The notes under the pieces were generated by a model. The model had not been told where the DNA came from, ran no database searches, and saw nothing but the letters and a program-made list of their open reading frames with translations. A DNA stretch of 64,000 bases from the IMG/VR virus record IMGVR_UViG_3300017919_000016, positions 27,965 through 91,964 of that record; one strand, written 5' to 3'. The first letter of the stretch is position 1. Every line of letters begins with the position of its first letter. Of this stretch, positions 8,372 through 42,007 are shown piece after piece. Position numbers and translations under genes: made by a program. The stretch is from a virus. Taxonomy: Duplodnaviria > Caudoviricetes.

Positions 8372-8435
8372 GGTTTTCCCTCCTTATCAAAGTGAAAGGA
8401 AGGCAGTAACTAGGACCACCTTCCTATTAGATTAC

Positions 8436-11807: not shown

Positions 11808-11826
11808 AATTGTTGTTCACCCCCTT

Positions 11827-13383: not shown

Positions 13384-13403
13384 AGGCGTCTCCTCCTTTC
13401 AAA

Positions 13404-13916: not shown

Positions 13917-13977
13917 AACTTTCACCTCCTTCATTTACTGCAAAGAAAAAGAGCCATTTTTCAGGCTCCAAATGTTA

Positions 13978-25677: not shown

Positions 25678-26673
25678 CTATTCGAACTTCATATAGCCAT
25701 CAAATCCTGCCGTTTTCAAACGGGCCATGAGATCCTCTGCATTCTTCTTTTCGCCGAATGCGCCCGCCTGGACCCGATAGAGTTTTTTGTCTCGCTTTTT
25801 CTCTGGCTCAACCTCCACACCAGCGCTGATCATGTCAAGGTTGTCTTTCGCTACCCAAGTCATAACCCCAGCCTTTTCATCCATGGTGCTTTTCAGAATG
25901 GTTTTTCCCAGTAGGACACATTCTTTGTCTCCTTTAACCACTGGTTTACCACCGGACTCATCTTGGGTGATTAAGTGGTAGTTCCACTTCACCCAGTTTG
26001 GAATAATGGGACCGCCTGGATAGTAGGTTTTGGCAGATGCCTTGATTTCTACAATATTACCAACTCCAAAGACCGTTTTACTATCATCTTCATTTTCGAG
26101 TTCTCTTTTCACAGCAGCTCTAAAGGAGTCCATATTTTCTCCATGCTTTGGAAACCAGTGCCCAACATCAGAATGATTAGAAGCAATGCCCTTCTTGTTT
26201 CCTTCTGCATGGCTGATGATATCCTTCTCGGTGAGCCCATATTTTCTGCAAAGGAACACGCAAAGATCCACTGCATTTTTCCAGGCCGCTCTAAAATAAG
26301 CCTCATGCTTTTTTGCGTCATAGCCCACCATCTGATTTCTAGAATAAGAAAACCCACCCGGCTCGCATATCTCAAAGCCGATGTGGGTATTGTTTGCATC
26401 TCCTCCGGCATGCCAACCCCTGTGATTCCAAGGAAGGTACTGCCAGATTTCTCTATCATCCAGGAAGGCATGAACACAAACCTGACGTTTGATCTCTTTC
26501 GCTTTATAGGATTTGTTCCACCAAATGAACCAGTCACCTGCCATCACACCGGGAGTTGCCGTGGAGTGGACCATGATGCCCCTCGGTGTGATCTTTCTCC
26601 CTGCGGTATAGCAATCATTTCTAGTCATGTACTTGATTCTCAGATTATTTAGTCCCATCCTTATCACCTCCAT
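25678..26673 (-). CDS. Endolysin: Amidase_2 with C-terminal SPOR domain
   Basis: VHST, WHAGG..N..IGFEICE, HSD; YRVQAGAF. Confidence 0.93.
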   Translation of the reverse strand: MEVIRMGLNNLRIKYMTRNDCYTAGRKITPRGIMVHSTATPGVMAGDWFIWWNKSYKAKEIKRQVCVHAFLDDREIWQYLPWNHRGWHAGGDANNTHIGFEICEPGGFSYSRNQMVGYDAKKHEAYFRAAWKNAVDLCVFLCRKYGLTEKDIISHAEGNKKGIASNHSDVGHWFPKHGENMDSFRAAVKRELENEDDSKTVFGVGNIVEIKASAKTYYPGGPIIPNWVKWNYHLITQDESGGKPVVKGDKECVLLGKTILKSTMDEKAGVMTWVAKDNLDMISAGVEVEPEKKRDKKLYRVQAGAFGEKKNAEDLMARLKTAGFDGYMKFE

Positions 26674-27061
26674 CCTTTAGCTGCTCTAGGATGTCTCTCA
26701 GCTTCTCTGGGACCGGTAGGCCGAGTCTTGTGGCGTTTTCGACGATACTGATTCCTTCATTGGATAGATAGAAGAAGATCACCGCAGTCCTAATGGCGCT
26801 GCCATCTCCGATAATATTCTGATCAATAATGTGTGCCACTCCTACCAAAGAAAAAATCACTACCTTCTTAAAGATGCCCTGAGCGCCTACGTCGCTAGAT
26901 AAGTGCTTTTCAAGCACCGCACACATAACACCCATGAGATAGTCAACCACTACAAAGGCAATCAGGGCATATAAAAAACCATCGTAGCCTCCTAGAAAAT
27001 AACCAAGCCATCCACCAACCGCCGCAAACATCATCTGAATGAAATTCCAAACTTCTCTCAT
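26645..27061 (-). CDS. Holin (toxin secretion/phage lysis family)
   Basis: GGYDG..D, KK, FYLSNEGISIVENA..GLPVP. Confidence 0.93.
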   Translation of the reverse strand: MREVWNFIQMMFAAVGGWLGYFLGGYDGFLYALIAFVVVDYLMGVMCAVLEKHLSSDVGAQGIFKKVVIFSLVGVAHIIDQNIIGDGSAIRTAVIFFYLSNEGISIVENATRLGLPVPEKLRDILEQLKDGGDKDGTK

Positions 27062-27152
27062 TTATATCCCTCACTTTCATAAATTCTCGTATATAAAAAG
27101 GCGCCCCCACAATGAGGACGCCTGGTGTTTCTATTCTGTTTGATTGTTTCCC

Positions 27153-28301
27153 TTAATAGGGTGCGAAGTAAATATACCCACTTGCCTTTATATAAAAGCC
27201 ATCACCCGGAATGTAGATGGCCCCATCGAATGTATCGTATTGACTTACCGCTAGATCAGGTTGATCCACCCCTTTCCAGCTGATACCATCATCGGACAAA
27301 TACATCATCTTCTCAGTGAACAAAGCGTATTTCTTCCACTCATTCATCCAGATGATATTCCTTGGATTAGAGATGTTATTACTAGCGAGGTCACCGACCC
27401 ATGAAAGATTCGTCTCCGTCATCTGTGTGGCATCGTCACTCATTACAGAGAGTTTCACATTGTAAATATAATCTCCACCCGTTTTTCTATAGTTATACTT
27501 TGTCACAAATAGCTTTTCATTTACTGACTGGATGAACATGTATCTTGTATCATTCTCGTCTTCTGGTATTGTCGTGATCCACTCATCTGGAGCCATTGAG
27601 TTAGCAATAGCTATTGATTTATCGCCGCCTACCACACCTACAAAGCTTCCTTTATGCGCTGTTAGATATTTGAAGATAGGCACCTTTTTTTCTTCAGTTG
27701 GTTCGATAAGAGTCCACTTAGTTTTCTCTTCTAATGAATCAAAGCTATGATAGATTGGAGTTTTCTCATACCACCAACTAACGACGCCACTTGATTCTTC
27801 CGCATCATATGCCGCTGTCGTCATGGCATTATAGGCTCCTTCACAGAAGCCCGCGTTATACCAAGTGATGCCATCATGAGAAGCGATGATATTAGCGAGT
27901 CCCGTAATCTTGGCCAGGAAAACTCCATCATCCGCGTAAAGTATCTCTGGTTCTCCATTTTCCCACCAAGAACAATCCACCATTGTCCACTCGCCACTAT
28001 CTTTATCAAAATATGAAACGTAAGGAGCTTTTGCTCTATACACAGCGATCTGAGCACTTCCGTTATCATAAACATTGATCTGCTTTTCATCACCCAGCAT
28101 CTCGTAACCAAAGTCTTCAAGGGTTAACTTTTCCCAGCTAAGTGAGTTCAGTCCAAGGTTTTCTACTGCATCATCGTCAAGATACTCTATCGCCTTAGCT
28201 TCATCAACTGGTGTGGTGTCAAAAAACACCATCGCGACGATTGCAATAAAAGCGACAATCATCAAACTGATGATGAGCTTACCTTTACCACTTTTTATCA
28301 C
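27153..28301 (-). CDS. Membrane-anchored/exported Asp-box beta-propeller-like protein, paralog of 28474-29547
   Basis: N-terminal KSGKGK plus ~19 hydrophobic residues; SxDGxxW boxes; colinear with upstream gene. Confidence 0.85.
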   Translation of the reverse strand: MIKSGKGKLIISLMIVAFIAIVAMVFFDTTPVDEAKAIEYLDDDAVENLGLNSLSWEKLTLEDFGYEMLGDEKQINVYDNGSAQIAVYRAKAPYVSYFDKDSGEWTMVDCSWWENGEPEILYADDGVFLAKITGLANIIASHDGITWYNAGFCEGAYNAMTTAAYDAEESSGVVSWWYEKTPIYHSFDSLEEKTKWTLIEPTEEKKVPIFKYLTAHKGSFVGVVGGDKSIAIANSMAPDEWITTIPEDENDTRYMFIQSVNEKLFVTKYNYRKTGGDYIYNVKLSVMSDDATQMTETNLSWVGDLASNNISNPRNIIWMNEWKKYALFTEKMMYLSDDGISWKGVDQPDLAVSQYDTFDGAIYIPGDGFYIKASGYIYFAPY

Positions 28302-28381
28302 TACTTCTCACCGCTCCTTTCAAATGGATAACACATAGACACCATCTATGAACTCAAATATCCTACGATATTCTGACATCT

Positions 28382-28411
28382 ATTATAAAATATATAACTA
28401 TATTTTTCCAA
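28382..28411 (-). promoter_or_regulatory. SigA-like promoter for 27153-28301
   Basis: TTGGAA-18nt-TATAAT on minus strand in an AT-rich intergenic region. Confidence 0.55.
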
Positions 28412-28473
28412 TCAATTCGAGCGTAAAACCATCTTTTTAATCGCCTCACTCAGCTTAAGAAATGTAGTTTTCA

Positions 28474-29547
28474 TTAGTATGGGGCATAGTAAACATAACC
28501 GCTAGCTTTAGCATAAAAACCATCACCAGGAATGTACATGGCACCATCGAAGGTGTCATACTGACTTGTGGTGAAACCCGGCTGTTCAACTCCCTCCCAG
28601 TAAAGACCATCATTGGAGACACAGAGCATACTCTCTTTTAGAAGTGCGAACTTTCCCCAGTCCTCCATCCAGATGATGTTCCTTGGATTTGGGATATTGT
28701 TGTTGGCCAGATCCCCTACCCAGGAAAGATTGGTCTCGGTGATCTGTGTGGCATCATCACTCATCACACAGAGCTTTACATAGTAGGTATAATCACCGCC
28801 CACATTGGTGTAGTTGAACTTCATCACAAAGAGGACATCATTCACAGACCTGATAAACATATACCGGGTGTCGTTCACATCCTCTGGTATAGTCGTAGTC
28901 CAAAGACCGGGAGTGGCTGAACTGGCTATTGCTATGGATTTGTCTCCACCAACTACGCCGACAAAGTTTCCCTTATGGGTGGTCAGGTATTTAAAAATCG
29001 GTACCGAAGTTCCGTCAGATCCAACCAAGGTCCATGCAGTTCTTTCCTCTAAAGAGTCAAAGCTATAGAAGACTGGTGATTTGTAGTACCACCAACTGAC
29101 GATACCGGAGCCTCTGGCCATATCATAAGCCCCACATGTCATTGCATTATAAGCTCCGGGACAATACCCCGCATTATGCCAAGTGATGCCATCAAAGGAT
29201 GCGATGACATTGGCAAGGCCCACAATCTTGGCAATAAACACACCATCTGCTGCATAGAGAATCTCCGGCTGGCCATAGCTCCACCAAGGAACACTGACCA
29301 CTGTCCACTGCTTTGTGGTCTTGTTCCAGTAGGACATGTAGGGAGTCTTTGCAAAGTACACAGCAATTTGAGCGTTGCCATTATCGTAAACGTTAATCTG
29401 CTTCTCGCTGCCATACTGGGTGTAGCCAAAGTTATTATAGTATTTCTTTGACCAACTCAGTGTTGGAATGGTGAAAAGAACCTCTCCTCGTCCACCGAAA
29501 GCTGTCCAGATGGCTAGGGTGTTATTAAAAATATGATCATAGCTCAT
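28474..29547 (-). CDS. Putative tail tip / receptor-binding protein with Asp-box repeats
   Basis: Last tail-module position; aromatic-rich beta protein; SFDGITW and SNDGLYW. Confidence 0.7.
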   Translation of the reverse strand: MSYDHIFNNTLAIWTAFGGRGEVLFTIPTLSWSKKYYNNFGYTQYGSEKQINVYDNGNAQIAVYFAKTPYMSYWNKTTKQWTVVSVPWWSYGQPEILYAADGVFIAKIVGLANVIASFDGITWHNAGYCPGAYNAMTCGAYDMARGSGIVSWWYYKSPVFYSFDSLEERTAWTLVGSDGTSVPIFKYLTTHKGNFVGVVGGDKSIAIASSATPGLWTTTIPEDVNDTRYMFIRSVNDVLFVMKFNYTNVGGDYTYYVKLCVMSDDATQITETNLSWVGDLANNNIPNPRNIIWMEDWGKFALLKESMLCVSNDGLYWEGVEQPGFTTSQYDTFDGAMYIPGDGFYAKASGYVYYAPY

Positions 29548-29562: not shown

Positions 29563-30690
29563 TTATACTTTTGTGACGCTGGTGATTCTTCCGCCGCTAT
29601 CCACGGTGTAGTTATATGTTGCTGTTGTTCCGTCTGCGTATTCAATATAAAAACTCATCATATCCACCGTTAAAGTGGATACTTCTTTCAAAAGAAGCTC
29701 CGAGAAAATATTATCCAGGGTGATGCTTGTAATACGGCCCCCGCTATCTGTGGTGTACTGGTACTGGGCATGATACTGGTGAGTATCACCCTTTTCCACA
29801 GTGTAGGTCACATCAATGGTTGTTTCCGTCACTACAAGATTGGAAACTATGGTATAGGAGACCCCTAGGTCATTCACCTGTGTTTGAATGTCATCCACCG
29901 AGCTTCCCACATTATTTAAAGAACTCTCTATCCGGTAGAAGGTATCTGAAATGCTGGGTCTATACCTCCCAACTTCCACCCGGATGTTGTACCTATAAAA
30001 GGGATTGTATTCTAGGGAGATGATTCTCGTCTTCACGTTGATTCCTAAGGGGTTAAAAACAATCTGTACATTATCTCCTACAGCAAGGTTCAAGAGCTTA
30101 AAGAATGAGATGTCATAGGATGAAGCATTCTCCCTGGAATCATGGGATACCGCTACGTTGGTTACATTCTTTGAATCCATCACCGGGATATAGTCAGTGC
30201 TTCCCCTATGACTTCGAATGTTGATGTTGTAACCATCGTACTCAATTTCCCCGCCAAGGATAGCAATATATTGCATCAGAGCAGCCCTTCTTGATACTTC
30301 CTGATTTATCTTCATAGTGACACTCTCTGTGAAATCTACAATCCCAGCATTAAATGTTGTGCCTGAAAGAACCTGCTCAAGTCCTGCAGCCGGATCTCCG
30401 GTGAAGTCAAACTCTGTGATGTTATACATCTCATGATTCAGGAGATAGGATACGTGCTCACAAATCACTGAACAGATAGGAAGGCTGCCCTGAAGACTCT
30501 TTGAAATCTGAACAATCTCAAAATACTGATCATCCAGTTTTGCGATCTGTTTTACCTTAAGAGCCAGTGCTGATTTTGCGAGCACCGTAAAAGAAAGTGT
30601 ATACTCCCCTTCTAGGGTTTCTCTGACAGTAGCACTCATGACTTTTTTAATGTTTTGAAGCAGTGTACTACCTGCATAGATTTCAATCAA
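29563..30690 (-). CDS. Tail hub/Tal-like (prophage tail endopeptidase family) protein
   Basis: ETLEGEY.LSF, CEHVSYLL, GGEIEYD; directly after TMP. Confidence 0.75.
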   Translation of the reverse strand: MIEIYAGSTLLQNIKKVMSATVRETLEGEYTLSFTVLAKSALALKVKQIAKLDDQYFEIVQISKSLQGSLPICSVICEHVSYLLNHEMYNITEFDFTGDPAAGLEQVLSGTTFNAGIVDFTESVTMKINQEVSRRAALMQYIAILGGEIEYDGYNINIRSHRGSTDYIPVMDSKNVTNVAVSHDSRENASSYDISFFKLLNLAVGDNVQIVFNPLGINVKTRIISLEYNPFYRYNIRVEVGRYRPSISDTFYRIESSLNNVGSSVDDIQTQVNDLGVSYTIVSNLVVTETTIDVTYTVEKGDTHQYHAQYQYTTDSGGRITSITLDNIFSELLLKEVSTLTVDMMSFYIEYADGTTATYNYTVDSGGRITSVTKV

Positions 30691-30711
30691 GGCTAATCCC
30701 TCCTCTCTGTT

Positions 30712-32991
30712 TTATGATCCTGCCACTCCAAGATTTCTAACGGTGACGGTATTTTGATTCCACTGTAGTTGTGCTATGACTCTTGTTAGAATATTTCCAT
30801 CAATTGTAAGTGGAATGGTCACATCAAAGACTGCACCTTCAGAACCACCGAGACTTCCTGAAACTTGAGAGTTCAGATCGAGATCAAAGTCTGTAGGTAT
30901 AGCTCCTTGAATGTCTTTTTCAACCCCACTCATGGCTTCAGTGAAGCCCTCTCCAATACCTTCACTCATGTTGGCACCAATCCCAGCGAATACTTTTGAT
31001 GGTGAGCGGATTCCAAGAACACCTTTAACACCTTTAACGATACCACTGACCATGCTATCCACTTTTCCTTTCAGCCAACCGATCATGGAGGAGATACCGT
31101 CCCATAGACCTCTAGCGATGTTTTTTCCCACATCATTCATAGAAGGAATGGCTCTTCCCAGTCCTGTCACAATTGCCGAGATGATTTGTGGAAGCTGACC
31201 GACAAGCTGCGGAATGGCTCTGATGAGTCCTGCCGCCAGCTGGATGGTCAGCTGAATGCCCATCTCAATAATCTTAGGTAAGTTATTTGTGATGAAGGTA
31301 ATAATGCTATTGATTATTTGAGGGAGGGCATCTATTAGCTTCGGCAGTGAGTTGATCAGACCCTCGGCAAGGCCACTGATGATCTGAAAGGCTGCATCAA
31401 GGACCAGGTCTAAGTTGTCGATGAACGTCTGGGCAATGAGAATCACTGCTTCAACAATGGAAGGAACCAGCTCAGGTAGCGCTTCACCAAGTCCCGTAGC
31501 AAGGGTAACAATCATCACAAGGGCTGCTTCTACAAGTGCTGGCAGATTGGCGATGATTCCATCTACTAAAGTCAGCACCAGTTGGAGTGCGCCTTCAGTA
31601 ATCTGAGGTAGAGCTTCGATGAGTCCACCTACGATGGTCATAATAATATTTGTCGCCGCTTCAATAAGCGTTGGCAAGTTATCGATGATGCCACTTACTA
31701 GAGCAAGAACAAGGTCCGGTGCCACTTCGGCAATAGCCGCTATGAGTCCAGTCACCACCTCTAAAATCTGCGGAAGAATCACTGCAATCTGATCCACCGT
31801 TTGCCTGGCCCCTTCTTTTAACGCTTCTGCGGCTCCTTCTTGGCCAGTAATTAGTCCGGTAAGCCCATCAAGCACCATGGTGAAGCCAGGAAGGAGCTGC
31901 GAGGTGATGTTGTTTTTCACCCCTGCAAAGGAACGAGTGAGGTTATCCATGGCATCGGTGTAACCCACCGCCGCATCAATGGATTCATCACTCATCACTA
32001 GGCCAAGTTCACTGGCTTTATTCTTCAGAGCATCTGTGCTTTCTGCTGTTTGATTTAAAAGGGCTCCAAGCTCTACAGAAGACGTGCCAAGAAGGTCATT
32101 GGCAATAGCAGCTTTTTCGCCTTCATCTGCAATCCCCTGTAGTCCTCTAACGGTCATCTCAAAGACTTCTTCTCGAGATTTCCCTTGAAGGTCCTCCATA
32201 GAAATGCCGAGTCTTTTAAACTTTTCAGTAGCAGAAGCACTCCCATTAATGGCATCATCCACGGTGCTATTCAGTTTCTTCATCCCGGCTTCAAGAGATG
32301 AGATGCTGGCACCATTTTGAGAAAGTACATACTCCCATTCCTGATAGCCTTGTCTCGAAAGGCCCAGTCTTTGACTGGCTTTATCCACTACATCTCCGGC
32401 GGCAGCTGCATCATTTGCCATATCATACAGCTTCTTTCCCGCACCCACTGCTGCAGTTCCAATGGCTGCCATGGCCACACCAATACCGGCGGCTACACCT
32501 TTCATGACAGATCCTAGTTTTTCAAGCTTCCCACCGGAATCATCTGCTACTTTAGCTGACTCTTTAATCTCATCGCCAAACTTATCAGCTTCTTTACCGG
32601 CATCATCAAATCCATTGCTGGCTGCATCGAGAGCTTTATTGTTTTCATCAAGCTCCCGCTCCATCTTGTTAAGATCTGCATTTGCATTATTCAGCTGAAT
32701 CTGCCAGGCCTTGGTTCGCTTGTCATTCTCGCCAAAGGAGTCGGCGGCATTTTTAAGGGCAGCTTCCAGGGTGCCGATTTTGTTTTTCTGGGCATCGATC
32801 TCTTTATTCAGGACTTCATTTCTTGCTGTCACTGCCTGTAGAGATTTATCCTGTTTATCAAACTGAGATGTGACGAGCTTCATCTCAGAACCAAGCACTT
32901 TGAAATCTCTGTTGATTTCACGAAGGCTATTCTTGAACTCCTTTTCCCCTTCAATACCTATTTTTAGGCCAAAATTGCTATCACCTGCCAT
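30712..32991 (-). CDS. Tape measure protein, copy A
   Basis: Ala-rich helical repeats with LP periodicity; GIRSPSKVF. Confidence 0.95.
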   Translation of the reverse strand: MAGDSNFGLKIGIEGEKEFKNSLREINRDFKVLGSEMKLVTSQFDKQDKSLQAVTARNEVLNKEIDAQKNKIGTLEAALKNAADSFGENDKRTKAWQIQLNNANADLNKMERELDENNKALDAASNGFDDAGKEADKFGDEIKESAKVADDSGGKLEKLGSVMKGVAAGIGVAMAAIGTAAVGAGKKLYDMANDAAAAGDVVDKASQRLGLSRQGYQEWEYVLSQNGASISSLEAGMKKLNSTVDDAINGSASATEKFKRLGISMEDLQGKSREEVFEMTVRGLQGIADEGEKAAIANDLLGTSSVELGALLNQTAESTDALKNKASELGLVMSDESIDAAVGYTDAMDNLTRSFAGVKNNITSQLLPGFTMVLDGLTGLITGQEGAAEALKEGARQTVDQIAVILPQILEVVTGLIAAIAEVAPDLVLALVSGIIDNLPTLIEAATNIIMTIVGGLIEALPQITEGALQLVLTLVDGIIANLPALVEAALVMIVTLATGLGEALPELVPSIVEAVILIAQTFIDNLDLVLDAAFQIISGLAEGLINSLPKLIDALPQIINSIITFITNNLPKIIEMGIQLTIQLAAGLIRAIPQLVGQLPQIISAIVTGLGRAIPSMNDVGKNIARGLWDGISSMIGWLKGKVDSMVSGIVKGVKGVLGIRSPSKVFAGIGANMSEGIGEGFTEAMSGVEKDIQGAIPTDFDLDLNSQVSGSLGGSEGAVFDVTIPLTIDGNILTRVIAQLQWNQNTVTVRNLGVAGS

Positions 32992-33057: not shown

Positions 33058-33267
33058 CTAGATCCAAGCGGGAATGACGTCATCGATCGATAGATTTAGC
33101 TTCGGTTTTGCGATGCCAATAAACTGCTTGTGGCATTCCCAAAGATCCATCAGATAACCTATAGGCATCAGCCACACCTCATCTTCTTTACGATTAAGAT
33201 GGGCCGTGCCGTAGTAGATCAGTCGGGTAAATAACTCCTCATCACTTACCCGACTACCTCGTTTTTT
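33058..33267 (-). CDS. Tail chaperone GT extension via -1 frameshift, copy A
   Basis: A AAA AAC at 33261-33267; -1 frame open to TAG at 33058. Confidence 0.82.
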   Translation of the reverse strand, partial: KKRGSRVSDEELFTRLIYYGTAHLNRKEDEVWLMPIGYLMDLWECHKQFIGIAKPKLNLSIDDVIPAWI

Positions 33268-33656
33268 GAAGGTTCGCTCTCCACATTTCTCTTGGTCCCC
33301 TTCATCATACTGGCCATGATGGCGTTCTTGTAGGCCGCTAGATCAAAAGGTGTGGTGAGAAGCTCCACTTCTTCTTCAGTGAGGAGTTCTTTCTTCTGAT
33401 CCTTATTCCTGATGTTATGAATCAAGATGGACTGATTGGCCAGAAGGGTGATGAGCCAAACCACCTCCTCGAGCGCCATTTCAAAGTTCTCAGTTTTCAT
33501 GAGCTTCTCGCCAAGGTTTTCAAGACCGCCATAACGTCCTGCAATTTCTTTTGTTGCCTTCGTTGTGAGTACCAGCTTAAACTCTGTGCCACCGATTTCA
33601 ATAGTGGCGCTTCGATCTTCAGCTGCTTCTGTGAGTTTTACATTTTCATCTGCCAT
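33246..33656 (-). CDS. Tail assembly chaperone (G), copy A
   Basis: Synteny and slippery site. Confidence 0.85.
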   Translation of the reverse strand: MADENVKLTEAAEDRSATIEIGGTEFKLVLTTKATKEIAGRYGGLENLGEKLMKTENFEMALEEVVWLITLLANQSILIHNIRNKDQKKELLTEEEVELLTTPFDLAAYKNAIMASMMKGTKRNVESEPSKNEVVG

Positions 33657-33670
33657 CTATCTTCCCTCCA

Positions 33671-34552
33671 TTAAGATACGATTACTGTTGCTACTTCAGT
33701 TGTCACAGGATCTGCTCCACTTAAGTTCAGCACACAGTAATAGTAATAGGTATCCGCCAGAAGACCCGTTGGGATATCAAAGCTGGCAGAGGTCTCTCCA
33801 TTAATTGGTGTACCTCCTGTAGAACTGTCAATGGTGTTTTCATACCACTGATACGTTACAGGGTTAGACGTATTGGAACTTGCCACCACAGAAAGACTTC
33901 CAGTTATGCTACCGGCTGTCACTTCGGTGAGGGCTGCAGGCTGAGTCGTGATGGTAATCGCCGGTGTTACCGGAGTAAAGTTTGGTTCATACACGGAAGT
34001 GAACCAACCTGAAATAGTCGATGGTGCAACACCGCTATCTCCTTCAGTGACTTCGGCTTTCCATGGGTGCTTGTTTTCTCCATCCAGTTTGTTTCGTCTA
34101 AAGACCGTTCCCTCTATGGTGGGACTACTAAAGGTAATGGAATCACCTTTGGTCGCAAGGCTGGTGGCAGGGACACTAAAGATAACTCGATAGAGCCAAA
34201 AATATCTATAGCGTCCGTTGGCCTTCTTAGCACGAAACCCGATGGCCACTGGGCTTCCTCCATCTTCACTTCTTGAAACAACGACATTGTTGCTGTCGAT
34301 TTTGCATCCTGTTAAATCCTGGGCCACCACTGAACCAATATCATCAATCCCAAGAGTCAGTGCGCCGCTTTTGAATTCCTTCACAACTTCTGATGCACCA
34401 TCATCCGCATAAAGAATTGCTTCAATCAGCTCCACACTCAGTTCTGCCGTCATGGCTTTAGCCAGGACCTTTGGTGTGCCATAGGTTTCGATGCCATTTT
34501 GATCTTCTGTAATCTTGGCGTAGTATAGACTGTCGAGTCCAATTGTTGCCAT
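33671..34552 (-). CDS. Major tail protein with Ig-like domain, copy A
   Basis: As copy B. Confidence 0.92.
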   Translation of the reverse strand: MATIGLDSLYYAKITEDQNGIETYGTPKVLAKAMTAELSVELIEAILYADDGASEVVKEFKSGALTLGIDDIGSVVAQDLTGCKIDSNNVVVSRSEDGGSPVAIGFRAKKANGRYRYFWLYRVIFSVPATSLATKGDSITFSSPTIEGTVFRRNKLDGENKHPWKAEVTEGDSGVAPSTISGWFTSVYEPNFTPVTPAITITTQPAALTEVTAGSITGSLSVVASSNTSNPVTYQWYENTIDSSTGGTPINGETSASFDIPTGLLADTYYYYCVLNLSGADPVTTEVATVIVS

Positions 34553-34590
34553 ATCCTATTCCTCCTTCAAAATAGCTGAATCCGCTTCAG

Positions 34591-34938
34591 CTAAAAATTC
34601 ACTTCATAAACTTTTGCCACATCGATGGCGAAGTGGTGAAAACCAGTATCTTCTTCGTATCCGAGATACCTTCTGTCCGTTATGATAAAGCCTGCTCCCA
34701 GTAGTGCTTTTACCACTTCATTTTTTCTCACCTGGTAGTTGCCCTTAGAGAACAAGGAGAGACGAACTTCCTGCAGTTCTGCTCCTGGCAGATCATCAGC
34801 AAAATGATCAAAGATATCACTCATAGGGGTAATGACCAGATATTCATCCGGAGCTTTTTTACTGAACACACCTGTTTCAATGGGAACCCCCAAAGGCACA
34901 AGGACCTCGCCTATATCCTTCAAAATACTGTTATACAT
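34591..34938 (-). CDS. Tail terminator/completion protein, copy A
   Basis: As copy B. Confidence 0.8.
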   Translation of the reverse strand: MYNSILKDIGEVLVPLGVPIETGVFSKKAPDEYLVITPMSDIFDHFADDLPGAELQEVRLSLFSKGNYQVRKNEVVKALLGAGFIITDRRYLGYEEDTGFHHFAIDVAKVYEVNF

Positions 34939-34958
34939 ATCGCTCGCCCTCCTTCTCT

Positions 34959-35390
34959 TTAGATTTTACTGATCTCTTCATCCAGCTTTCTTTTCATCGC
35001 ATCTATACAGGCGTTTCGGCTGGCTGTTTTTGCCGGTTTCAAGAATGGCTTAGCCGGCTGACCAGACTTACCGTACTCTAAGATATTGGCGAGTTTAGCA
35101 TTTGATTCTCCGTCTTTTCGCGGTTCATCAAAGCCCACCTTCACATTGTAATTGCCATCTCGATCCACGCCAGCAGGCGTTACACCGAGTGCATCAATCA
35201 GCTCTCCAGTAGACCTTGATGGAAGTTTTGTGTCACTTCCAATCGTTGCATGTAGATTGGTTTTCACTTTGGCTTTCACCACTTCGCCACCTTCTTTTAG
35301 GACTTTGGGGATGATTTCATCGGTCTTCTCAGCTAGGGTAGATACCTTTAACAAGAAGCTTTCAGGCATTTTGTAGGTTCCACGTGCCAT
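34959..35390 (-). CDS. HK97 gp10-family protein, copy A
   Basis: LEYGKSGQPAKPF. Confidence 0.9.
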   Translation of the reverse strand: MARGTYKMPESFLLKVSTLAEKTDEIIPKVLKEGGEVVKAKVKTNLHATIGSDTKLPSRSTGELIDALGVTPAGVDRDGNYNVKVGFDEPRKDGESNAKLANILEYGKSGQPAKPFLKPAKTASRNACIDAMKRKLDEEISKI

Positions 35391-35401
35391 GAAATCACCT
35401 C

Positions 35402-35740
35402 CTAGTCCTTCGTGGCTTCAATCTTTTCTGCTGCTACTTCAAAATAAAATCCCATAATAACCTCAACGCTTAAGATTCGGTACTCCCCGGTATCGCAGCG
35501 GATCAACATACCAGGTTCAATCACCACATCAGGAATCCTTCTAAACTGAAAGGTGGCACTCGCTTTGGAATAGGCGGCCATATTGGCCCACTTTCTTGAA
35601 CCGTGCCTTTCATCCCTATATGCACGAACACTGGCGATGATCTCTTCTCCCTTGGAGGAGAATCCTTCAGCGTCCTTGATGGGAATCGTATCGATGATGT
35701 CGATTCGGGTGTTCATCTTCCCAAAGCTCATACCCTTCAC
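35402..35740 (-). CDS. Head closure protein, copy A
   Basis: As copy B. Confidence 0.85.
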   Translation of the reverse strand: MKGMSFGKMNTRIDIIDTIPIKDAEGFSSKGEEIIASVRAYRDERHGSRKWANMAAYSKASATFQFRRIPDVVIEPGMLIRCDTGEYRILSVEVIMGFYFEVAAEKIEATKD

Positions 35741-35849
35741 CTACCTTTACTACCTTTTCCTCATAACCATGACTGCGATCCTTCCGTCTGCCCTTTCGGT
35801 AGCATCTTTTCTGACGTTTCCTTCTTTTCTTCACCCATAACCGTTTCAT
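35667..35849 (-). CDS. Arg/Lys-rich 60-aa microprotein, copy A
   Basis: MKRLWVKKRRKRQKRCYRKGRRK; frame conserved in both copies. Confidence 0.6.
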   Translation of the reverse strand: MKRLWVKKRRKRQKRCYRKGRRKDRSHGYEEKVVKVGEGYELWEDEHPNRHHRYDSHQGR

Positions 35850-36157
35850 CAGACCTGCCACTCCTTTCCCATGCGTAGAAGTAGATGTACTGTCTTCCAC
35901 ACCTGCTCTGAAGCACTGACATTGTCATTAAAGAAACCACCGGTGGAGCCATCACGACTCTCATAAAAATGAGAAGCCAGCATAATGACTCCCTGCTCAG
36001 TGGTCGGTGACATGGTGTTTTCTGTGTAGAAGTTTGCCCCTAGATGCTGATAACCTTCGGCATAGCTGATGGCGGCTGTAATGAACCCTTCTAGCAAGGC
36101 ATCATCCTCATTATGGGTTACAATGAGATTTTGTTTCACCTTCTCAAGAAGCGTCAT
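35849..36157 (-). CDS. Head-tail connector, copy A
   Basis: As copy B. Confidence 0.92.
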   Translation of the reverse strand: MTLLEKVKQNLIVTHNEDDALLEGFITAAISYAEGYQHLGANFYTENTMSPTTEQGVIMLASHFYESRDGSTGGFFNDNVSASEQVWKTVHLLLRMGKEWQV

Positions 36158-36163
36158 CTACCA

Positions 36164-36388
36164 TCACTCGCTTTCCATGAGGCCAGCGGTTTTAAGCTTT
36201 AAAAGTAAGGCGTTAAAATCTGCTACCAGGTCCGCCACATCCACAGCGGTGCTGTCTGCTTGAAGTGCTGCAGGTTTAAGCTGAGTACCATTAAAGGTAA
36301 TTTTCCCTTCTGCAGTTACGGCAAGCTCTCCACCGATGACAGTCTTCTCGCCACCCTGCTCGGTATAGTTTTTCGTGTTATATCCCAT
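36164..36388 (-). CDS. Head fiber/decoration protein, copy A
   Basis: As copy B. Confidence 0.7.
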   Translation of the reverse strand: MGYNTKNYTEQGGEKTVIGGELAVTAEGKITFNGTQLKPAALQADSTAVDVADLVADFNALLLKLKTAGLMESE

Positions 36389-36452
36389 GGTTTTCCCTCC
36401 TTATCAAAGTGAAAGGAAGGCAGTAACTAGGACCACCTTCCCGTTAAATTAC

Positions 36453-37661
36453 TTAGGCCTTTTGCTGAAGAACCTTGATGGCTTCAGGAAGGATTAGTTT
36501 TGCATCCAGTCTCTGAGATGCAAGGAAACCGACCTGACCATTTGCTGCATAGAGTTCGTTCAGACGTTTGAAGGTTCTACCCTGACGATCAGCAATCCAG
36601 TAGTACTTAAAGTCTCCAAAGAGGATGGTCTTTTCACCAGCTGCAGCTGTTGGCATATACTGAGAAGTAACCACTGGACGATTGAGAATCGTATCTGGTG
36701 TTCCTGACTGAACAGATGGCTGCCACAAGTACTGACCCTGACCATCTTTCAGCTTTCTAATAGCTTTGATGGTCGCATCATTCACAAGGAAGGTCGCATT
36801 CTTTCTATAAGCCGACTTCAAGCTGTGGTAAAGGTCAAGCACCTCATCAATGGTGATGGCTGTTGCACTTGCAGCAGTTACACCAAGGCTGGCTCCACCG
36901 GTTGTATGAAGAAGACCTGTAGGTTTGCTGCTTCCGTTACCAGTGAGGAAGCTTTCCTCCTCTGCTGCACCGATTCGTCTTGCAAACTCAGCTGCAATGT
37001 AGGCTTCAAGGTCGAAGTAGCTGTCATTAAGAAGCTCATCAGAAACCTTCAGCATGGTGCCAAGTTTGTAAGCTGACAAGGTCACCTGAGTGAATGCATC
37101 ATCACTTTCAGTGAAGGCCGCTTCTTCATCCATCCATGCTGCGGATCCATGACTTGCTACAACAGGAATTTTTCTATCCCCGTAGCTGGTCGTAATCACG
37201 TTACACAGATTTCTAAGCACATTTGCCTCTTCAAGTGCTTGAATCAGCTGGTTCTCATACTCATCCGGTACGAGGAATCCACCTTCTGAATCCGTACCAA
37301 TCTGAAGCGCGTTGTGAACTGCAGGGTTCATCTTGTTTCTCATGGCACCCCAAAAGGCACTTTTATAGGCATCGGACGCTCTACCAGTTTTCTCTTCGGT
37401 CATCTTATCAGGTCTGGATGCAAGAGGTTTGCTAAGGGCAGCTGAAAGCTCTCTGTCCATCATCTCTTGACGCTCGAGGCGCTCGATTTCCTTACCAAGG
37501 TTGACCACTTCATCTTCCATCTTTTCATAGACGGCATTGTCCTCAGGTTTGATCAGACCATTCTCCTGACGATGTTCATCAAGGAATAACTTAGCCTGCT
37601 CCCAAACCTTGGCACGTTTCTCTCTTAGTTCTTGAATTTTACTCATATTCATTACCTCCAA
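36453..37661 (-). CDS. Major capsid protein, HK97 family, copy A
   Basis: As copy B. Confidence 0.96.
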   Translation of the reverse strand: MEVMNMSKIQELREKRAKVWEQAKLFLDEHRQENGLIKPEDNAVYEKMEDEVVNLGKEIERLERQEMMDRELSAALSKPLASRPDKMTEEKTGRASDAYKSAFWGAMRNKMNPAVHNALQIGTDSEGGFLVPDEYENQLIQALEEANVLRNLCNVITTSYGDRKIPVVASHGSAAWMDEEAAFTESDDAFTQVTLSAYKLGTMLKVSDELLNDSYFDLEAYIAAEFARRIGAAEEESFLTGNGSSKPTGLLHTTGGASLGVTAASATAITIDEVLDLYHSLKSAYRKNATFLVNDATIKAIRKLKDGQGQYLWQPSVQSGTPDTILNRPVVTSQYMPTAAAGEKTILFGDFKYYWIADRQGRTFKRLNELYAANGQVGFLASQRLDAKLILPEAIKVLQQKA

Positions 37662-38458
37662 TTTTTAATCAGCTCCAGCCGTCTTTCCAGCTGGGCAATA
37701 GGGATAAGTGTCTTTTCTACTGGTTCTTGCTTTGGTTCTTTGCTCACGGGTACCGCTTCAGGTGTGGCTACCTTCTCTTCTCCCTGTTTATCAGAGAGGT
37801 ATTTCATCCTCGCCTGAATGCCTGGGAGTTTGTTCCTTAGAGCATTTGTCACTGTCATCTGGTCAAAGATAAAGCCAACGGAACCTTCATCTACCGGCTC
37901 TGATTCATAGAGAATCTTGTCGGCAAACTTCAGCTCGATGGCCTTATGGGCACTCATCCAGGTTTCAGCGTCCATCATGTGTGAGATTTTCGCTCTGGAA
38001 AGACCCGTCTTTGTCTGATAAGCATTGATAATACTCTCTTTTACTTCACTGAGTAGGTTAATCCCCACCTGCAGATCCGCCACCTCACCAGCAATAAGCA
38101 TGGCTGGGTTATGGATCATGATTACTGACAATGGAGATACACATACCTCATCTCCCGCCATGGCAATGACAGAAGCGGCACTGGCTGCAAGCCCATCAAT
38201 ATGGACACTGACCTTACCGGGATACTCTTTAAGCATGTTGTAAATCTGTGCTGCAGCGAAGGTGTCTCCACCTGGTGAGTGTATCTTTACAACAATGTCA
38301 TCTGCTTTAGATTCACTATCATAAAGCTCCGTCTTAAACTGTTTAGGGGTGATATCATCGTCAAACCAAGAGGACTCTGCAATGTATCCTTCAAGGTGCA
38401 AGGTTCTCACTGTAGGCTCCTCGGCTTCATTCACCACCCATCGCCAAAATTTATCCAT
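37652..38458 (-). CDS. ClpP-like head protease, copy A
   Basis: IHSPGG, GLAASAAS. Confidence 0.95.
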   Translation of the reverse strand: MDKFWRWVVNEAEEPTVRTLHLEGYIAESSWFDDDITPKQFKTELYDSESKADDIVVKIHSPGGDTFAAAQIYNMLKEYPGKVSVHIDGLAASAASVIAMAGDEVCVSPLSVIMIHNPAMLIAGEVADLQVGINLLSEVKESIINAYQTKTGLSRAKISHMMDAETWMSAHKAIELKFADKILYESEPVDEGSVGFIFDQMTVTNALRNKLPGIQARMKYLSDKQGEEKVATPEAVPVSKEPKQEPVEKTLIPIAQLERRLELIKNWR

Positions 38459-38539
38459 CTATTCGACCTCCTTTCGGGCATTAAAAAAGCACTCCTCGAT
38501 TTTGAGAAATGCTGTTGATACATCGTATTAAGTTTTTAG

Positions 38540-38593
38540 TTGTCCACAGAAATGGAGCAGTTGCACACATGCTTATGCACATAGTTATACACA
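38540..38593 (+). promoter_or_regulatory. Cluster of DnaA-box-like 9-mers
   Basis: TTGTCCACA 38540, TTGCACACA 38561, TTATGCACA 38573, TTATACACA 38585 vs TTWTNCACA. Confidence 0.55.
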
Positions 38594-38598
38594 CGTCA

Positions 38599-39834
38599 TC
38601 ATGGCTCATCACCACCAGACTCATCCAAGGCTTTCTTCGCGTAGGCGCCTGCCATCTTTAAAGGCAAAAGATTTCCGTTCGCCAAATAGAGATTCCCACC
38701 TTCTTCATCAGGTATTGGATCCATATTCTCCATCCTTCTCACATCATTAACGGAGAAGAAACCATTCTGAATACCGATGGCGTATCCATCCATCCTGGAT
38801 TTATAATCCCCTCGCATCAGAGCTGATGCATTGAAGGACACGAAACACTGACCTTTCTCTTTTTCAAGGAAGAGCTTCTTGTTCATCGCCTGCTCTATTC
38901 GAACCAGCCAAGGTCTGATGGTATGGACCACAAAGCTGATGGATTGGTTCTCAATGTTACTGAATGAACTCTTGCTAAGGTCCGCCACCATATGAGGTGG
39001 CACTTGAAAGATTCTGCAGATTTCTTCTATCTGAAACTTCCTGGTCTCAAGAAACTGCGCATCGGAGTTGGGCATGCTGATGGCTTGGTACTGAAGGCCA
39101 TCTTCAAGGACTGCCACCTTGTTGCTGTTTCCACTTCCCCCATAAGCCGCCTGCCAGGCATCTCTCACTTTTGATGGATCCTTGATGGTTCCTGATGTTG
39201 AAAGAATACCGCTTGGTGTAGCGTTGTTGGCAAAGAACCTGCCACCATATTCTTCAGCGGCTATGTTAAGTCCGATGGCATTCTTTGCTAGAGCCACCGG
39301 TGAGTAACCCATGACACCATCAAAGCCAAGTCCTGGTACATGAAGAACATCTTCAGGTCCTATATAATGGGTGGTAGTGTCCTTCCTATAAGCGTAGTAG
39401 AGATTTCCATTCTTATCTCGATCCACCGTCATCTTGTCGGGAAGCAAGGGATATAGAAGCACCACTTCCCCTTTGCCATTTCGAATAATCTGGCAGTAGG
39501 CATTTCCCCATAGAAGGAGGTGGGTCATCATGGTCTCCCTTAAGGTAAAGGACGTCATCTCCGGGTTTGGTTCATCGTGTAAAATCCTATACAACGGGTG
39601 GGTGTACAGCTTTTCTTTACCGTCACCTTGGTACCTGTAAGTGTGAAGGGGTAAAGATGCCACCGTCTCAGCAATGATTCTCACACAGGCAAAAACCGCA
39701 GTGGTCTGCATGGAGCTTCGTTCGTTGACGATTTTCCCCGATATACTTTGACCCATATAAAAGTTAGGAGCACTGCTGACACTGTCAGTAGGTTCTGCCC
39801 TCGCCTTAAAGAGCCATTTAAAAAAGTTTGCCAT
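38599..39834 (-). CDS. Portal protein, copy A
   Basis: As copy B. Confidence 0.96.
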   Translation of the reverse strand: MANFFKWLFKARAEPTDSVSSAPNFYMGQSISGKIVNERSSMQTTAVFACVRIIAETVASLPLHTYRYQGDGKEKLYTHPLYRILHDEPNPEMTSFTLRETMMTHLLLWGNAYCQIIRNGKGEVVLLYPLLPDKMTVDRDKNGNLYYAYRKDTTTHYIGPEDVLHVPGLGFDGVMGYSPVALAKNAIGLNIAAEEYGGRFFANNATPSGILSTSGTIKDPSKVRDAWQAAYGGSGNSNKVAVLEDGLQYQAISMPNSDAQFLETRKFQIEEICRIFQVPPHMVADLSKSSFSNIENQSISFVVHTIRPWLVRIEQAMNKKLFLEKEKGQCFVSFNASALMRGDYKSRMDGYAIGIQNGFFSVNDVRRMENMDPIPDEEGGNLYLANGNLLPLKMAGAYAKKALDESGGDEP

Positions 39835-39853
39835 AATCTATGTTCACCCCCTT

Positions 39854-41410
39854 CTATCCTAAAATGATCATGTCGCGTTCATCATAAATAGATCCATCAT
39901 CATCCGGTGGATTCACGGTTGCTCTGGCAAGACCCATGATCAAGGCTACGATACCATCGATTTTTTCAGAGGACTTTTCCTTGTCTACCTTGATGTTTCC
40001 AGCAGGGTCCGTTCTGACCACGATGTTATCTGCCATCCACCTCAAGACTGGATGCCCGCCATGGGCAATCTGCTTGCTTAGTGTAAGCCTCATCAGATCT
40101 TTGGTTGGTGGAGACATATCCTTAAAACCCTGACCAAACGGTACTACCGTAAATCCCATACCCTCTAGGTTCTGGCTCATCTGCGTTGCGCCCCAGCGGT
40201 CATAGACGATTTCTCTGATGTTGTATTTCTCACCAAGTCGCTCAATAAACTTTTCGATGAATCCATAGTGGACCACGTTTCCTTCCGTTAGATTAAGAAG
40301 TCCCTGCCTATGCCAGATGTCATAGGGAACGCTGTCTCTTTTCACCCGCTGATGTAGAGTTTCCTCCGGAAGCCAGAAGTATGGGAGTACCTGAAACTTA
40401 TCTCCCTCTTCTAGTGGAGGGAACACTAAAACAAAAGCGGTGATGTCACTGGTTGAGGATAGGTCAAGACCTCCATAGCAGACTCGTCCTTTCAGCTCTT
40501 CCGGGTCTATCGTGTAGTTACAAAGGTCCCACTTGTCCATGGGCATCCATTTGATTTCCTGCTTTAACCACATGTTTAGTCTAAGCTGTTTAAACAAGGC
40601 GAGATCTGCCGGATCGTCTTTGACTTGATTGTAGTGCTCCCTGACCCTCTCTATTGAAATGGTATGGCCAAGACTTGGGTTGGCCTTATACCAGTTGTTT
40701 TCATCTTCAATGTCCGCATCATCCTCTAGCCCATAGATAATGGCGAGAAATGTCGGATCTACTCTCTTACCTTCCAGTATGTCTTTCGCCTTTTGATGCA
40801 TTTCCCAGCCATAGCCGGAGAGTTGATTCCCTGCAGTGGTGAGATATAAAAAGAGCGGCTGGGTTCTCGCATCCCCTGAACCGGTGGTCAGCATCTTGGC
40901 AAGGTCTGGATTTGGATAGGTCCAAATCTCATCAAGGATAACGCAAGAAGCATTGATCCCGGACTTTGATTTAACATCGGAACTAAGTACCTGATAAAAA
41001 CTTCCTGTCTTTGGATAGGTGATTCGCTTAGTGGAGCGCACAAGGTTTGTGACCTTCGATAGGGTTGAGTTCCCTTCCACAAAGTTCATACTGGTGTTAA
41101 AAATGATGCTGGCCTGTTGTCTATCACAAGCGGCTACATACACTTCTGCATTGGGTTCCCCATCAGCAAGAAGCATGTAAAGGGCAATGGCTGCGCCCAG
41201 CTCCGACTTTCCGTTTTTCTTACCAATCTCCACATAGGCGGTTCGGTACTGGCGGGTGCCATCTTCCCTTAAGGTTCCAAAGAGGCGTCTCACCAAGTCC
41301 TTCTCCCAGGGAAGTAACTTAAAAGGCTGACCGGCCCATCTGCCCTTGGTCAGCTTCAGTTGTTCGATAAAGTTTATGGCGTGGTTCGCATGGGCTTCAC
41401 TAAATGGCAT
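39854..41410 (-). CDS. terL: Terminase large subunit, copy A
   Basis: Walker A GKKNGKS; nuclease motifs. Confidence 0.96.
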   Translation of the reverse strand: MPFSEAHANHAINFIEQLKLTKGRWAGQPFKLLPWEKDLVRRLFGTLREDGTRQYRTAYVEIGKKNGKSELGAAIALYMLLADGEPNAEVYVAACDRQQASIIFNTSMNFVEGNSTLSKVTNLVRSTKRITYPKTGSFYQVLSSDVKSKSGINASCVILDEIWTYPNPDLAKMLTTGSGDARTQPLFLYLTTAGNQLSGYGWEMHQKAKDILEGKRVDPTFLAIIYGLEDDADIEDENNWYKANPSLGHTISIERVREHYNQVKDDPADLALFKQLRLNMWLKQEIKWMPMDKWDLCNYTIDPEELKGRVCYGGLDLSSTSDITAFVLVFPPLEEGDKFQVLPYFWLPEETLHQRVKRDSVPYDIWHRQGLLNLTEGNVVHYGFIEKFIERLGEKYNIREIVYDRWGATQMSQNLEGMGFTVVPFGQGFKDMSPPTKDLMRLTLSKQIAHGGHPVLRWMADNIVVRTDPAGNIKVDKEKSSEKIDGIVALIMGLARATVNPPDDDGSIYDERDMIILG

Positions 41411-41430
41411 AGGCGCCTCCTCCTTTCAAA

Positions 41431-41943
41431 TTAGTCGTCCTTACTCTTTTTTAGAATGTCCTCCGCCTTTGGCACATTGGATAGTAGCTCTTCCATGGCA
41501 TCGCCCTCGATGGTGTTCCCGCTGTTATTGATGTTGAGTCTACTTCGGGCTGATGGACTAAGCCCAAGCTCTGAGCAGAAGTTTCTCATCTGTTTAAGGT
41601 TCTGCTGGGCAATGGACACTTGAGGAATCTGCTGAATGTATCCTGAAGCGGTCTTCAAAATGGATCCATGCTTTGAGATGAATTCCTCTGCTTCCTTCCA
41701 TCTGGCATAAGCTTGACAGTACCCGGCAAAGGCAGCCATATCGACCCTCGTCAGTAGCCCCATAGCTTCCAGCTCTTTTGATAGCCTTCTCCATTCTTTC
41801 TTGGCATCCGGTTCCAGCCATGACGGGCACTTGGGTGCTATCTGTTTTGGTTTTGGTTCGTTTTTATTCAGTGGTCTTTTTCCTGGATTGCCTTCCAGTT
41901 CTTTAACCGCTGTAGGTTTTGGTGGTCTTCCTCTACCTGCCAT
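41431..41943 (-). CDS. terS: Terminase small subunit, P27 family, copy A
   Basis: As copy B. Confidence 0.94.
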   Translation of the reverse strand: MAGRGRPPKPTAVKELEGNPGKRPLNKNEPKPKQIAPKCPSWLEPDAKKEWRRLSKELEAMGLLTRVDMAAFAGYCQAYARWKEAEEFISKHGSILKTASGYIQQIPQVSIAQQNLKQMRNFCSELGLSPSARSRLNINNSGNTIEGDAMEELLSNVPKAEDILKKSKDD

Positions 41944-42007
41944 AACTTTCACCTCCTTCATTTGCTGCAAAGAAAAAGACCCGTAGGTCTTCATTCAAAA
42001 CTACATT

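Follow-up and report, generated by a model that had tools for sequence, protein, structure and literature searches.

Why should a phage carry, directly after the last gene of its tail, a second version of that gene with a strongly hydrophobic N-terminus? The question is raised by a stretch of viral DNA (Duplodnaviria; Caudoviricetes) of 64,000 nucleotides, here called the window, that comprises bases 27965-91964 of the 91,964-bp IMG/VR provirus record IMGVR_UViG_3300017919_000016. Two open reading frames follow one another on the minus strand, at 28474..29547 and 27153..28301, as described in an earlier reading of the sequence (the original prediction). The former, gene A, is the last tail gene and encodes a protein of 357 amino acids (aa) with a seven-bladed β-propeller and an N-terminal peptide. 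The latter, gene B, begins with GTG and encodes an accessory paralog of 382 aa. We think it quite probable that B is an accessory gene under selection, whose product carries a copy of the tail-tip propeller across the cytoplasmic membrane and stays out of the virion. That it acts by receptor interference or superinfection exclusion is the function that we favour from the sequence, as a tentative proposal.

Gene B encodes the propeller behind a predicted membrane segment

BLASTP aligns the two proteins over 332 aa with 68% identity, 81% positives and a single one-residue gap (E = 4e-175), and the alignment runs to a shared C-terminal APY. The genes are 70% identical over 946 bp. The near-gapless paralogy at 60-70% identity that had been judged by eye is therefore real.

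The N-terminus of B was described as a signal anchor or signal peptide followed by an acidic linker, and this is borne out. Codons 9-27 (28221..28277, minus strand) encode a hydrophobic helix, either a signal anchor or the h-region of a Sec signal, with a mean Kyte-Doolittle hydropathy of 3.13 over its 19 residues; there is a charge of +3 before it and -4 after it, and A has no such segment. Codons 28-50 (28152..28220) form an acidic linker between the helix and the propeller. The same design is found in all B-type proteins, each of which has a basic N-terminus, a hydrophobic stretch of 19 residues (mean Kyte-Doolittle 2.5-3.1) and an acidic flank. In the AlphaFold2 (AF2) model of B, which has a predicted local distance difference test (pLDDT) score of 87.6, residues 5-27 are helical and residues 28-42 are disordered, followed by the same propeller as in A; the pLDDT falls below 50 at residues 26-35.

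By the positive-inside rule the topology of B is predicted to be N-in/C-out, so that B has, by prediction, the outward-facing membrane anchoring of envelope exclusion proteins. A possible signal-peptidase site (A-K-A or T-Q-A followed by IEY) is present in the B proteins of the window and of one relative (locus L011), A-K-A being residues 34-36. B may thus be membrane-tethered, or possibly secreted after cleavage at the candidate A-K-A site. In either case the propeller would be extracytoplasmic, and since the tail is assembled in the cytoplasm B would be kept out of it. We considered whether B might be a lipoprotein and rejected this, as no B-type protein has a lipobox cysteine. No match of B to a described exclusion or defence family was found in Pfam, PHROG, NCBIfam or PADLOC.

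B is an insertion between the tail and lysis genes

The record contains two related prophages of anaerobic Firmicutes in tandem, occupying window positions 1-21954 and 22130 to approximately 50000, the second of which carries B. Their head-to-tail modules (5041-13955 and 33058-41982) are 89% identical in nucleotide sequence, and positions 1-1725 are 85% identical to the tape-measure gene. Synonymous change between the two is dense (for gene A the synonymous divergence dS is 1.03 and the non-synonymous divergence dN is 0.020, a ratio of 0.02), so these are distinct phages rather than a duplication arising in assembly.

The late genes are all on the minus strand, in the order major tail protein, chaperone, tape measure, Tal-like tail-tip protein, A, B, holin and endolysin. 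In the sister prophage the A protein is 96% identical to that of the window and its gene is followed directly by a hairpin and the holin gene, without B. The junctions B-holin in the one prophage and A-holin in the other are collinear, so B together with its upstream spacer behaves as an insertion between A and the ancestral hairpin. B is thus present or absent among otherwise collinear relatives, as is usual for moron cargo.

The A-B spacer is 172 nt long (28302..28473). It contains a promoter-like element on the minus strand (28382..28411), TTGGAA and TATAAT separated by 18 nt, that matches the consensus at 10 of 12 positions. The original prediction took this as B's own promoter; it is the best σ70-like match in the 6 kb between 25000 and 31000, and is unique in the window. 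The element lies in a block of approximately 32 nt that L011 has in nearly identical form, with the remainder of its spacer unalignable, and that L044 also keeps while the flanks diverge. The spacers of L005 and L006 each have a TATAAT box without a convincing -35 element. No terminator-like site was found between A and B, so late transcripts probably also read into B. We also looked for a structured regulatory 5' leader of B; this was dropped, as the folding is no better than that of shuffled sequences (z = -0.6).

Downstream of B there is a terminator-like hairpin with a T-run (27099..27123, minus strand), upstream of the holin gene. The terminator claimed for B therefore exists, but it is not specific to B, because the same element precedes the holin gene in every relative examined, whether A or B lies upstream. 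It is thus no evidence that B is a self-contained unit. We note that the conservation of this hairpin throughout the family means that the lysis genes need read-through, antitermination or a promoter of their own.

Gene A encodes a conserved propeller at the tail tip

Gene A is distal in the tail module, lying after the genes for the tape measure and the Tal-like protein, and more than 130 loci share the order Tal-like, A, holin, among them those of 30%-identical relatives in which the Tal protein has 788 aa. The Tal-like protein of the window (375 aa; 29563..30690, minus strand), whose gene directly follows that of the tape measure, is matched by PF18994, PF06605, TIGR01665 ('phage tail spike protein') and PHROG tail families, and weakly in the PDB by 3GS9 (gp18).

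The AF2 model of A (pLDDT 89.2; predicted template modelling score 0.86) is a propeller of seven four-stranded blades, closed by the N-terminal strand 33-35. The first 26 codons (29470..29547, minus strand) encode a conserved peptide that is absent from B. Every A-type protein has M-[ST]-Y there and then FNNxLAIWTAFGGRG, kept from Bacillaceae to Heliorestis, and in the 30%-identical relatives it is still recognisable as FNTPLVVFAAFNGD. It is modelled with low confidence as a short helix outside the propeller. Being conserved and external to the propeller in the model, it has the character of a docking peptide, and presumably attaches A to the Tal-like protein, its presumed partner.

Structural comparison of A using Foldseek and VIA-align found only generic seven-bladed propellers, including Ycf48 (E = 4e-9, TM score 0.5-0.58) and glycoside hydrolase family GH74 (Z = 19.7); WD40 and integrin propellers differ from these by no more than one or two Z units. 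Function cannot be read from the fold, since no match stands out above the others. The best matches among predicted viral structures (TM score 0.55-0.61) are propeller domains embedded in tail-fibre-like proteins, among them proteins with intramolecular chaperone domains, a 'short tail fiber' and BNR-repeat proteins. The modelled propeller thus has a host-binding type of fold as found in phage tails, although a shared fold does not by itself imply function. The protein had been called an Asp-box propeller; the seven-bladed propeller is correct, whereas the Asp-boxes are not. There are just two SxDGxxW motifs (residues 117-123 and 311-317 of A), each one residue short of the canonical Asp-box, and the Pfam BNR models matched neither A nor B.

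The columns that are invariant across the family, distant relatives included, are Gly, Asn, Trp, Ser, Ala, Pro, Phe and Tyr. No Asp, Glu, His, Arg or Lys is invariant across the family; the nearest to this are D119, in an Asp-box-like motif, and H191. As there is no conserved acid/base pair and the invariant residues are structural, the propeller is better read as a binding module than as an enzyme, and this pattern argues against a glycoside hydrolase or depolymerase without excluding one. From gene position and fold we infer that A is the receptor-binding protein of the virion.

The family is small. Neither A nor B had a meaningful match in Pfam, PHROG, NCBIfam or PADLOC, and the same was true of proteins P0045 and P0040 (the latter is considered below). 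Two alignment-profile searches of PDB sequences gave insignificant matches only (HupZ, E = 0.25; a carbohydrate-binding protein, E = 0.32), and tblastn of A against 50,697 GenBank phage records gave none, so the family has no cultured representative among them. The capsid protein of this phage family does match a record, PV036459.1, at 92%. An exhaustive profile search of 1.84 billion representatives yielded only 29 hits, and the distant relatives are equally unannotated.

B-type genes form an old clade that moves between phages

Homologues of A occur in many Bacillota at 56-98% identity. Those at 89-98% are found in Alkalibaculum, Youngiibacter, Senegalia, Gudongella, Anaerotalea, Proteiniborus and an Erysipelothrix metagenome-assembled genome (MAG), the last on a 2.3-kb contig whose binning is uncertain; those at 58-80% are found in Bacillaceae, Syntrophomonadaceae, Pelotomaculum, Haloplasma and Heliorestis. 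We note that identity of 89-98% extends across several orders of Bacillota (loci L095-L105 and L122 included). Conservation of A over this range suggests that the receptor is very conserved, that the host range is unusually broad, or both.

B is much rarer. B-type genes are present in four IMG/VR loci (L015, L016, L026 and L044), i.e. four of the 69 with enough flanking sequence (about 6%), and in none of approximately 48 loci from species-representative genomes. Orthologues of the window B were found in L011 (a Joint Genome Institute (JGI) contig; 70% identical), L005 (a European Nucleotide Archive contig; 65%) and Schinkia azotoformans (L006-L008; 54%). In the protein database the B-type clusters have approximately 20 member sequences and the A-type clusters many hundreds. 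A search of related prophages for the gene pair, which had been suggested as a check, found every B-type gene directly downstream of its cognate A and ahead of the conserved terminator and holin, in at least four diverged prophage lineages.

When the propeller region is placed in a maximum-likelihood tree, all B-types group in a single clade (ultrafast bootstrap (UFboot) 85). Its internal structure roughly mirrors that of the cognate A proteins, with branches about four times longer. Between A and B synonymous sites are saturated in three of the four phages compared, and close to saturation (dS 2.0) in L006. A recent tandem duplication of this phage's own A gene, the origin that was first proposed, is rejected by the tree and by this saturation. 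The dN/dS of B is 0.11-0.13, indicating clear purifying selection that is five-fold weaker than that on A.

For the same pairs of phages the synonymous divergence of B is lower than that of A (0.28 against 1.11 in one pair, and 0.08 against 0.37 in another), and the holin is 96-99% identical among B-bearing loci compared with 85-92% in the others. The lower divergence of B and the shared holin indicate that a B-holin block has been exchanged between phages recently. On the tree and these divergences, the B-types are an old clade moving between phages and not the product of local duplication.

Charge and surface differ between A and B

The propellers of the B-types contain 45-51 Asp and Glu residues, and those of the A-types 25-34, i.e. 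about 20 more in B. The net charge is -19 to -25 in the B-types, compared with a median of -8 in the A-types, and the B-types have fewer aromatic residues and fewer cysteines. The directional shift from uncharged and aromatic to charged residues that was noticed in this one pair is thus genuine, and extends throughout the clade.

Among 330 aligned columns of the propeller, 154 are conserved with the same residue in the A-types and the B-types. Six differences between A and B are fixed (N75D, S90E, S157T, D178E, G324D and F325L), and a further 39 columns are conserved in A and variable in B. The faces of the propeller were assigned from strand-order topology, not from 3D coordinates, and are approximate. 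On this assignment the resulting 45 A-specific positions are over-represented in the D-A and B-C loops of the 'top' face (23 of 101, compared with 22 of 229 elsewhere; odds ratio 2.8, p = 0.003), where they are spread all around the propeller. They include an aromatic segment immediately after the docking peptide, which is KKYYNNFGYTQYG in A and becomes KLTLEDFGYEMLG in B.

It could be that the top face acts together with the N-terminal peptide to dock A on the tail, so that B has been freed from this need. Equally the top face could bind the receptor, and B would then have drifted or changed its specificity. The original prediction held that assembly surfaces were replaced in B while the ligand face was kept. 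This is not supported, because the face that is 2.8-fold enriched may be that of docking or that of the ligand.

The site occupied by B holds other cargo in relatives

The A-holin junction carries different genes in other members of the family. These include MerR with the mercuric reductase MerA (L107:6034-9067 and L123:6028-8838), a candidate defence system, PDC-M68, of two genes (CTD10 and DUF2326; ABC-3C-like) in L116:6409-9286, a group II intron reverse transcriptase (L021:3680-5104), and a set of small unannotated membrane proteins (L131:6141-8436). A second site of this kind is the junction between the chaperone and tape-measure genes, where Phd/ParE is found in Schinkia (L006), an AbiE-like pair in L092, and an AbiE pair in the sister prophage of the window. 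From the contents of these junctions, B occupies a slot used for cargo of benefit to the lysogen and directed against phages. The moron layout originally proposed for B holds with respect to its optional presence, the promoter-like element, the cargo hotspot and purifying selection; the terminator is ancestral and does not belong to it.

The AbiE genes of the sister prophage (window 1815-4838) encode a toxin-antitoxin pair, AbiEi and AbiEii (199 and 233 aa), split by a Mutator-family transposase (413 aa). In the same prophage the holin-endolysin junction (L004:12498-14442; G000:C1, upstream of the window) contains AbiLi (439 aa; PADLOC E = 4.5e-78) and AbiLii/RloB (217 aa).

A related propeller is encoded on a host chromosome

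Two proteins of 475-478 aa, P0031 and P0040, have the same propeller, 69-71% identical to A. They branch beside the A-type protein P0020 (UFboot 74), outside the B clade. The gene for P0040 (L010:4303-5739) lies on a 10.9-kb contig that has no phage genes, where its neighbours encode the GTPase Der, phosphofructokinase, a class A penicillin-binding protein and LexA. The first 145 residues of P0040 are a pilin-like module that is found in at least 195 proteins of uncultured Clostridia (including P0083-P0200), joined to unrelated C-terminal domains such as RCC1, leucine-rich repeat, SUMF1-type and GH18; several of these proteins are labelled PilE by JGI. As the P0040-type fusion lies outside the B clade, surface display of the propeller arose at least twice independently, once in phage and once in the host. 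We note that a single MAG encodes dozens of proteins with the pilin-like module, and that one member has captured the phage propeller.

A function for B

We propose that B would be a moron-type accessory gene of a widespread family of siphovirus-like prophages of Firmicutes, encoding an extracytoplasmic tail-tip propeller. Without the docking peptide that A most likely uses on the Tal-like protein, B would be barred from the virion, and the short acidic linker would keep its propeller just outside the cytoplasmic membrane. There it would most likely occupy the envelope target that the tail tip must reach, i.e. receptor interference. Phages of the same family, of which several often live together in one host, would thereby be shut out, and progeny could be saved from loss by adsorption to debris. 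On this proposal B would be expressed in lysogens, bind the target of A and block infection. Siphophages of Gram-positive bacteria meet their final receptor near the membrane, for example a membrane protein such as YueB for SPP1 or PIP for c2. A protein blocker could plausibly saturate a membrane protein, but not an abundant wall polymer. Where B is absent, phages of the family accumulate in one genome, with three copies in Robertmurraya beringensis and two in Anaerotalea, and this makes a need for exclusion plausible.

A number of observations weigh against receptor interference. The positions that are constrained in A and free in B concentrate on the top-face loops; should this be the receptor face, B may not share the ligand of A. 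The extreme conservation of A (dN/dS about 0.02, and 89-98% identity across several orders) is unusual for a receptor-binding protein. B evolves about four times faster than its cognate A, and its rarity speaks against a large general benefit. Since transcripts of A meet no terminator before B, the latter is probably produced late as well, and its promoter may be inactive in the lysogen. The B-bearing prophage stands in tandem with a sister that lacks B and has an A protein 96% identical to its own, so that exclusion could hold, at best, for one order of arrival only. Lastly, B matches no known exclusion or defence family in Pfam, PHROG or PADLOC.

Some of these observations would suit other functions. 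B might be a membrane-proximal decoy that engages the incoming tail tip (the Tal-like protein, the tape measure or A) and blocks channel formation or entry of DNA, in the manner of the Ltp and Sie2009-type proteins. The evidence of anchoring, topology and hotspot is the same as for receptor interference, the short linker would place the propeller at the membrane, the site of injection, and a top face constrained in A but free in B fits a changed partner. However, B lacks the N-terminal peptide that is the likeliest contact with the tail, nothing points to self-association of A, and Pfam, PHROG and PADLOC reveal no similarity of B to the Ltp or Sie families; we regard a decoy as unlikely. We give a similarly small probability to B being a conversion protein that benefits the host in another way, be it as an adhesin or by binding wall or glycan. 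In the chromosomally encoded P0040 the propeller is joined to a pilin-like module that at least 195 proteins contain, and the hotspot also holds cargo unconnected with defence, e.g. mercury resistance. Yet on a linker of approximately 20 residues the propeller would lie under the wall, where an adhesin would be badly placed, and B is never found without its cognate A upstream.

There is a slim chance that B functions in the lytic cycle only, as a late read-through product that coats receptors on the dying cell and its debris, or that aids release beside the holin and endolysin. It lies immediately upstream of the lysis cassette with no terminator after A, it travels with a particular holin allele (96-99% identity, against 85-92% elsewhere), and Llp of phage T5 is expressed early in lytic infection (PMC9586334). 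Against this, purely late expression would make the conserved σ70-like block directly upstream of B needless, and most members of the family do well without B. A second receptor-binding protein of the virion, or an alternative tail-tip subunit that widens the host range, might be expected of a full-length selected paralog of the last tail gene located in the tail block, but this is very unlikely for a protein that lacks the N-terminal peptide found in every A-type and has a strongly hydrophobic export or anchor segment that is incompatible with tail assembly in the cytoplasm. That B is a decaying duplicate without function is scarcely credible. It is rare and evolves faster than A, but it is intact in all lineages with a dN/dS of about 0.08-0.13 and synonymous sites saturated between lineages, and its acidification and matching anchor or signal design are consistent across these.

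Receptor interference can be extended to a broader scenario, which we think doubtful. In this, temperate phages of Firmicutes would have evolved interference of the retroviral type by means of an anchored tail-tip paralog displayed by the lysogen, saturating the envelope target and shutting out a whole and unusually promiscuous phage family, and bacteria would independently have domesticated the module on a pilin-like scaffold as a chromosomal defence.

Other genes of the late region

The major tail protein is encoded at 33671-34552, the chaperone at 33246-33656 and the tape measure at 30712-32991. The holin gene (26645..27061; PF05105, E = 2.5e-45) is followed by that of an endolysin with Amidase_2 and SPOR domains (25678..26673; Pfam and PHROG matches), and two large serine recombinases come next. 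All five of these tail and lysis genes are on the minus strand. The C-terminus of the Tal-like protein contains a duplicated motif, Y-T-T/V-D-S-G-G-R-I-T-S. No Dit-like (Sipho_tail) gene lies between the tape-measure and Tal-like genes (window 29563-32991), and past the tape measure the tail module consists of two genes only. An Rfam scan of the whole window gave no match.

Comparison with known systems

Precedent for both the logic of receptor interference and the gene layout comes, by analogy, from phage T5. Purified receptor-binding protein pb5 of T5 blocks infection, and the exclusion gene llp is adjacent to and downstream of the gene for the receptor-binding protein (PMC9586334). Llp, which is expressed early during lytic infection, is termed a lytic conversion protein (PMC9586334). 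Like B as we predict it, Llp and the Cor lipoproteins of T1-like phages are phage-encoded, anchored in the envelope and encoded beside the gene of the receptor-binding protein, on its downstream side. Llp inactivates the receptor of its own phage, and it is by analogy with this that the corresponding role is proposed for B. The differences are considerable. Llp is a small lipoprotein unrelated to pb5 that acts on an outer-membrane protein for a lytic phage of Gram-negative bacteria, whereas B, found in prophages of Gram-positive bacteria, has no lipobox but a transmembrane or signal segment, and is a full-length tail-tip paralog.

Ltp (TP-J34) and proteins of the Sie2009 type, as covered in part by PMC3952083, are encoded by temperate phages of Gram-positive bacteria and anchored on the outside of the cytoplasmic membrane; they stop infection at the stage of adsorption or later. 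B is likewise encoded by a prophage and predicted to be located at the outer face of the membrane. The Ltp and Sie2009-type proteins are small products of the lysogeny module that are unrelated to tail proteins. B, by contrast, lies between the tail and lysis genes, and has no match in Pfam, PHROG or PADLOC.

On the side of the virion, A can be compared with the receptor-binding protein Gp45 of Staphylococcus phage phi11, a trimeric protein of 636 aa that has, besides its stem and tower domains, a five-bladed propeller as the platform for the ligand (PMC4901313, PMC4876445). Gp45 is a baseplate or tail-tip protein with a β-propeller from a siphophage of Gram-positive bacteria, as A presumably is. 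A differs in having a single seven-bladed propeller with an N-terminal peptide of 26 residues, and no sequence similarity to Gp45 was detected. An anchored paralog of Gp45 has not been described for phi11.

Like classical morons of the lambda lom and bor type, B is optional, lies in a late operon, and has a promoter-like element before it and a terminator after it. It departs from them in that the terminator is shared with the ancestral junction, and in that the cargo is not foreign but paralogous to a structural gene. To our knowledge the surface exclusion proteins of phages are small proteins unrelated to the virion, and in the literature searched we found no exclusion or conversion protein that is paralogous to the phage's own tail-tip protein. 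If B does exclude phages, it would be the first such protein known to us that is derived from the tail-tip protein of the phage itself. In kind B would belong with the envelope-located conversion and exclusion proteins of prophages, and would move towards a new class of mechanism if the function were confirmed. The system is compact and testable, comprising one gene with clear presence and absence variants and natural controls, and with the propellers of A and B as a matched pair of probes one could look for the envelope target of a prophage family whose tail tips are 89-98% identical in several orders of Bacillota.

The term receptor interference was not found in the literature searched as applied to phages in this sense. 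The closest conceptual parallel to B, by analogy, is the interference mediated by retroviral Env, including that of domesticated env genes such as Fv4, where a cell that expresses the receptor-binding module of the virus saturates the receptor and resists superinfection. The logic is the same, while the retroviral system is eukaryotic and unrelated to B in sequence and structure. If the proposal is true, B would be a bacterial parallel to Env-mediated receptor interference and to the domesticated env genes, the latter of which would have their own counterpart in the chromosomal P0040.

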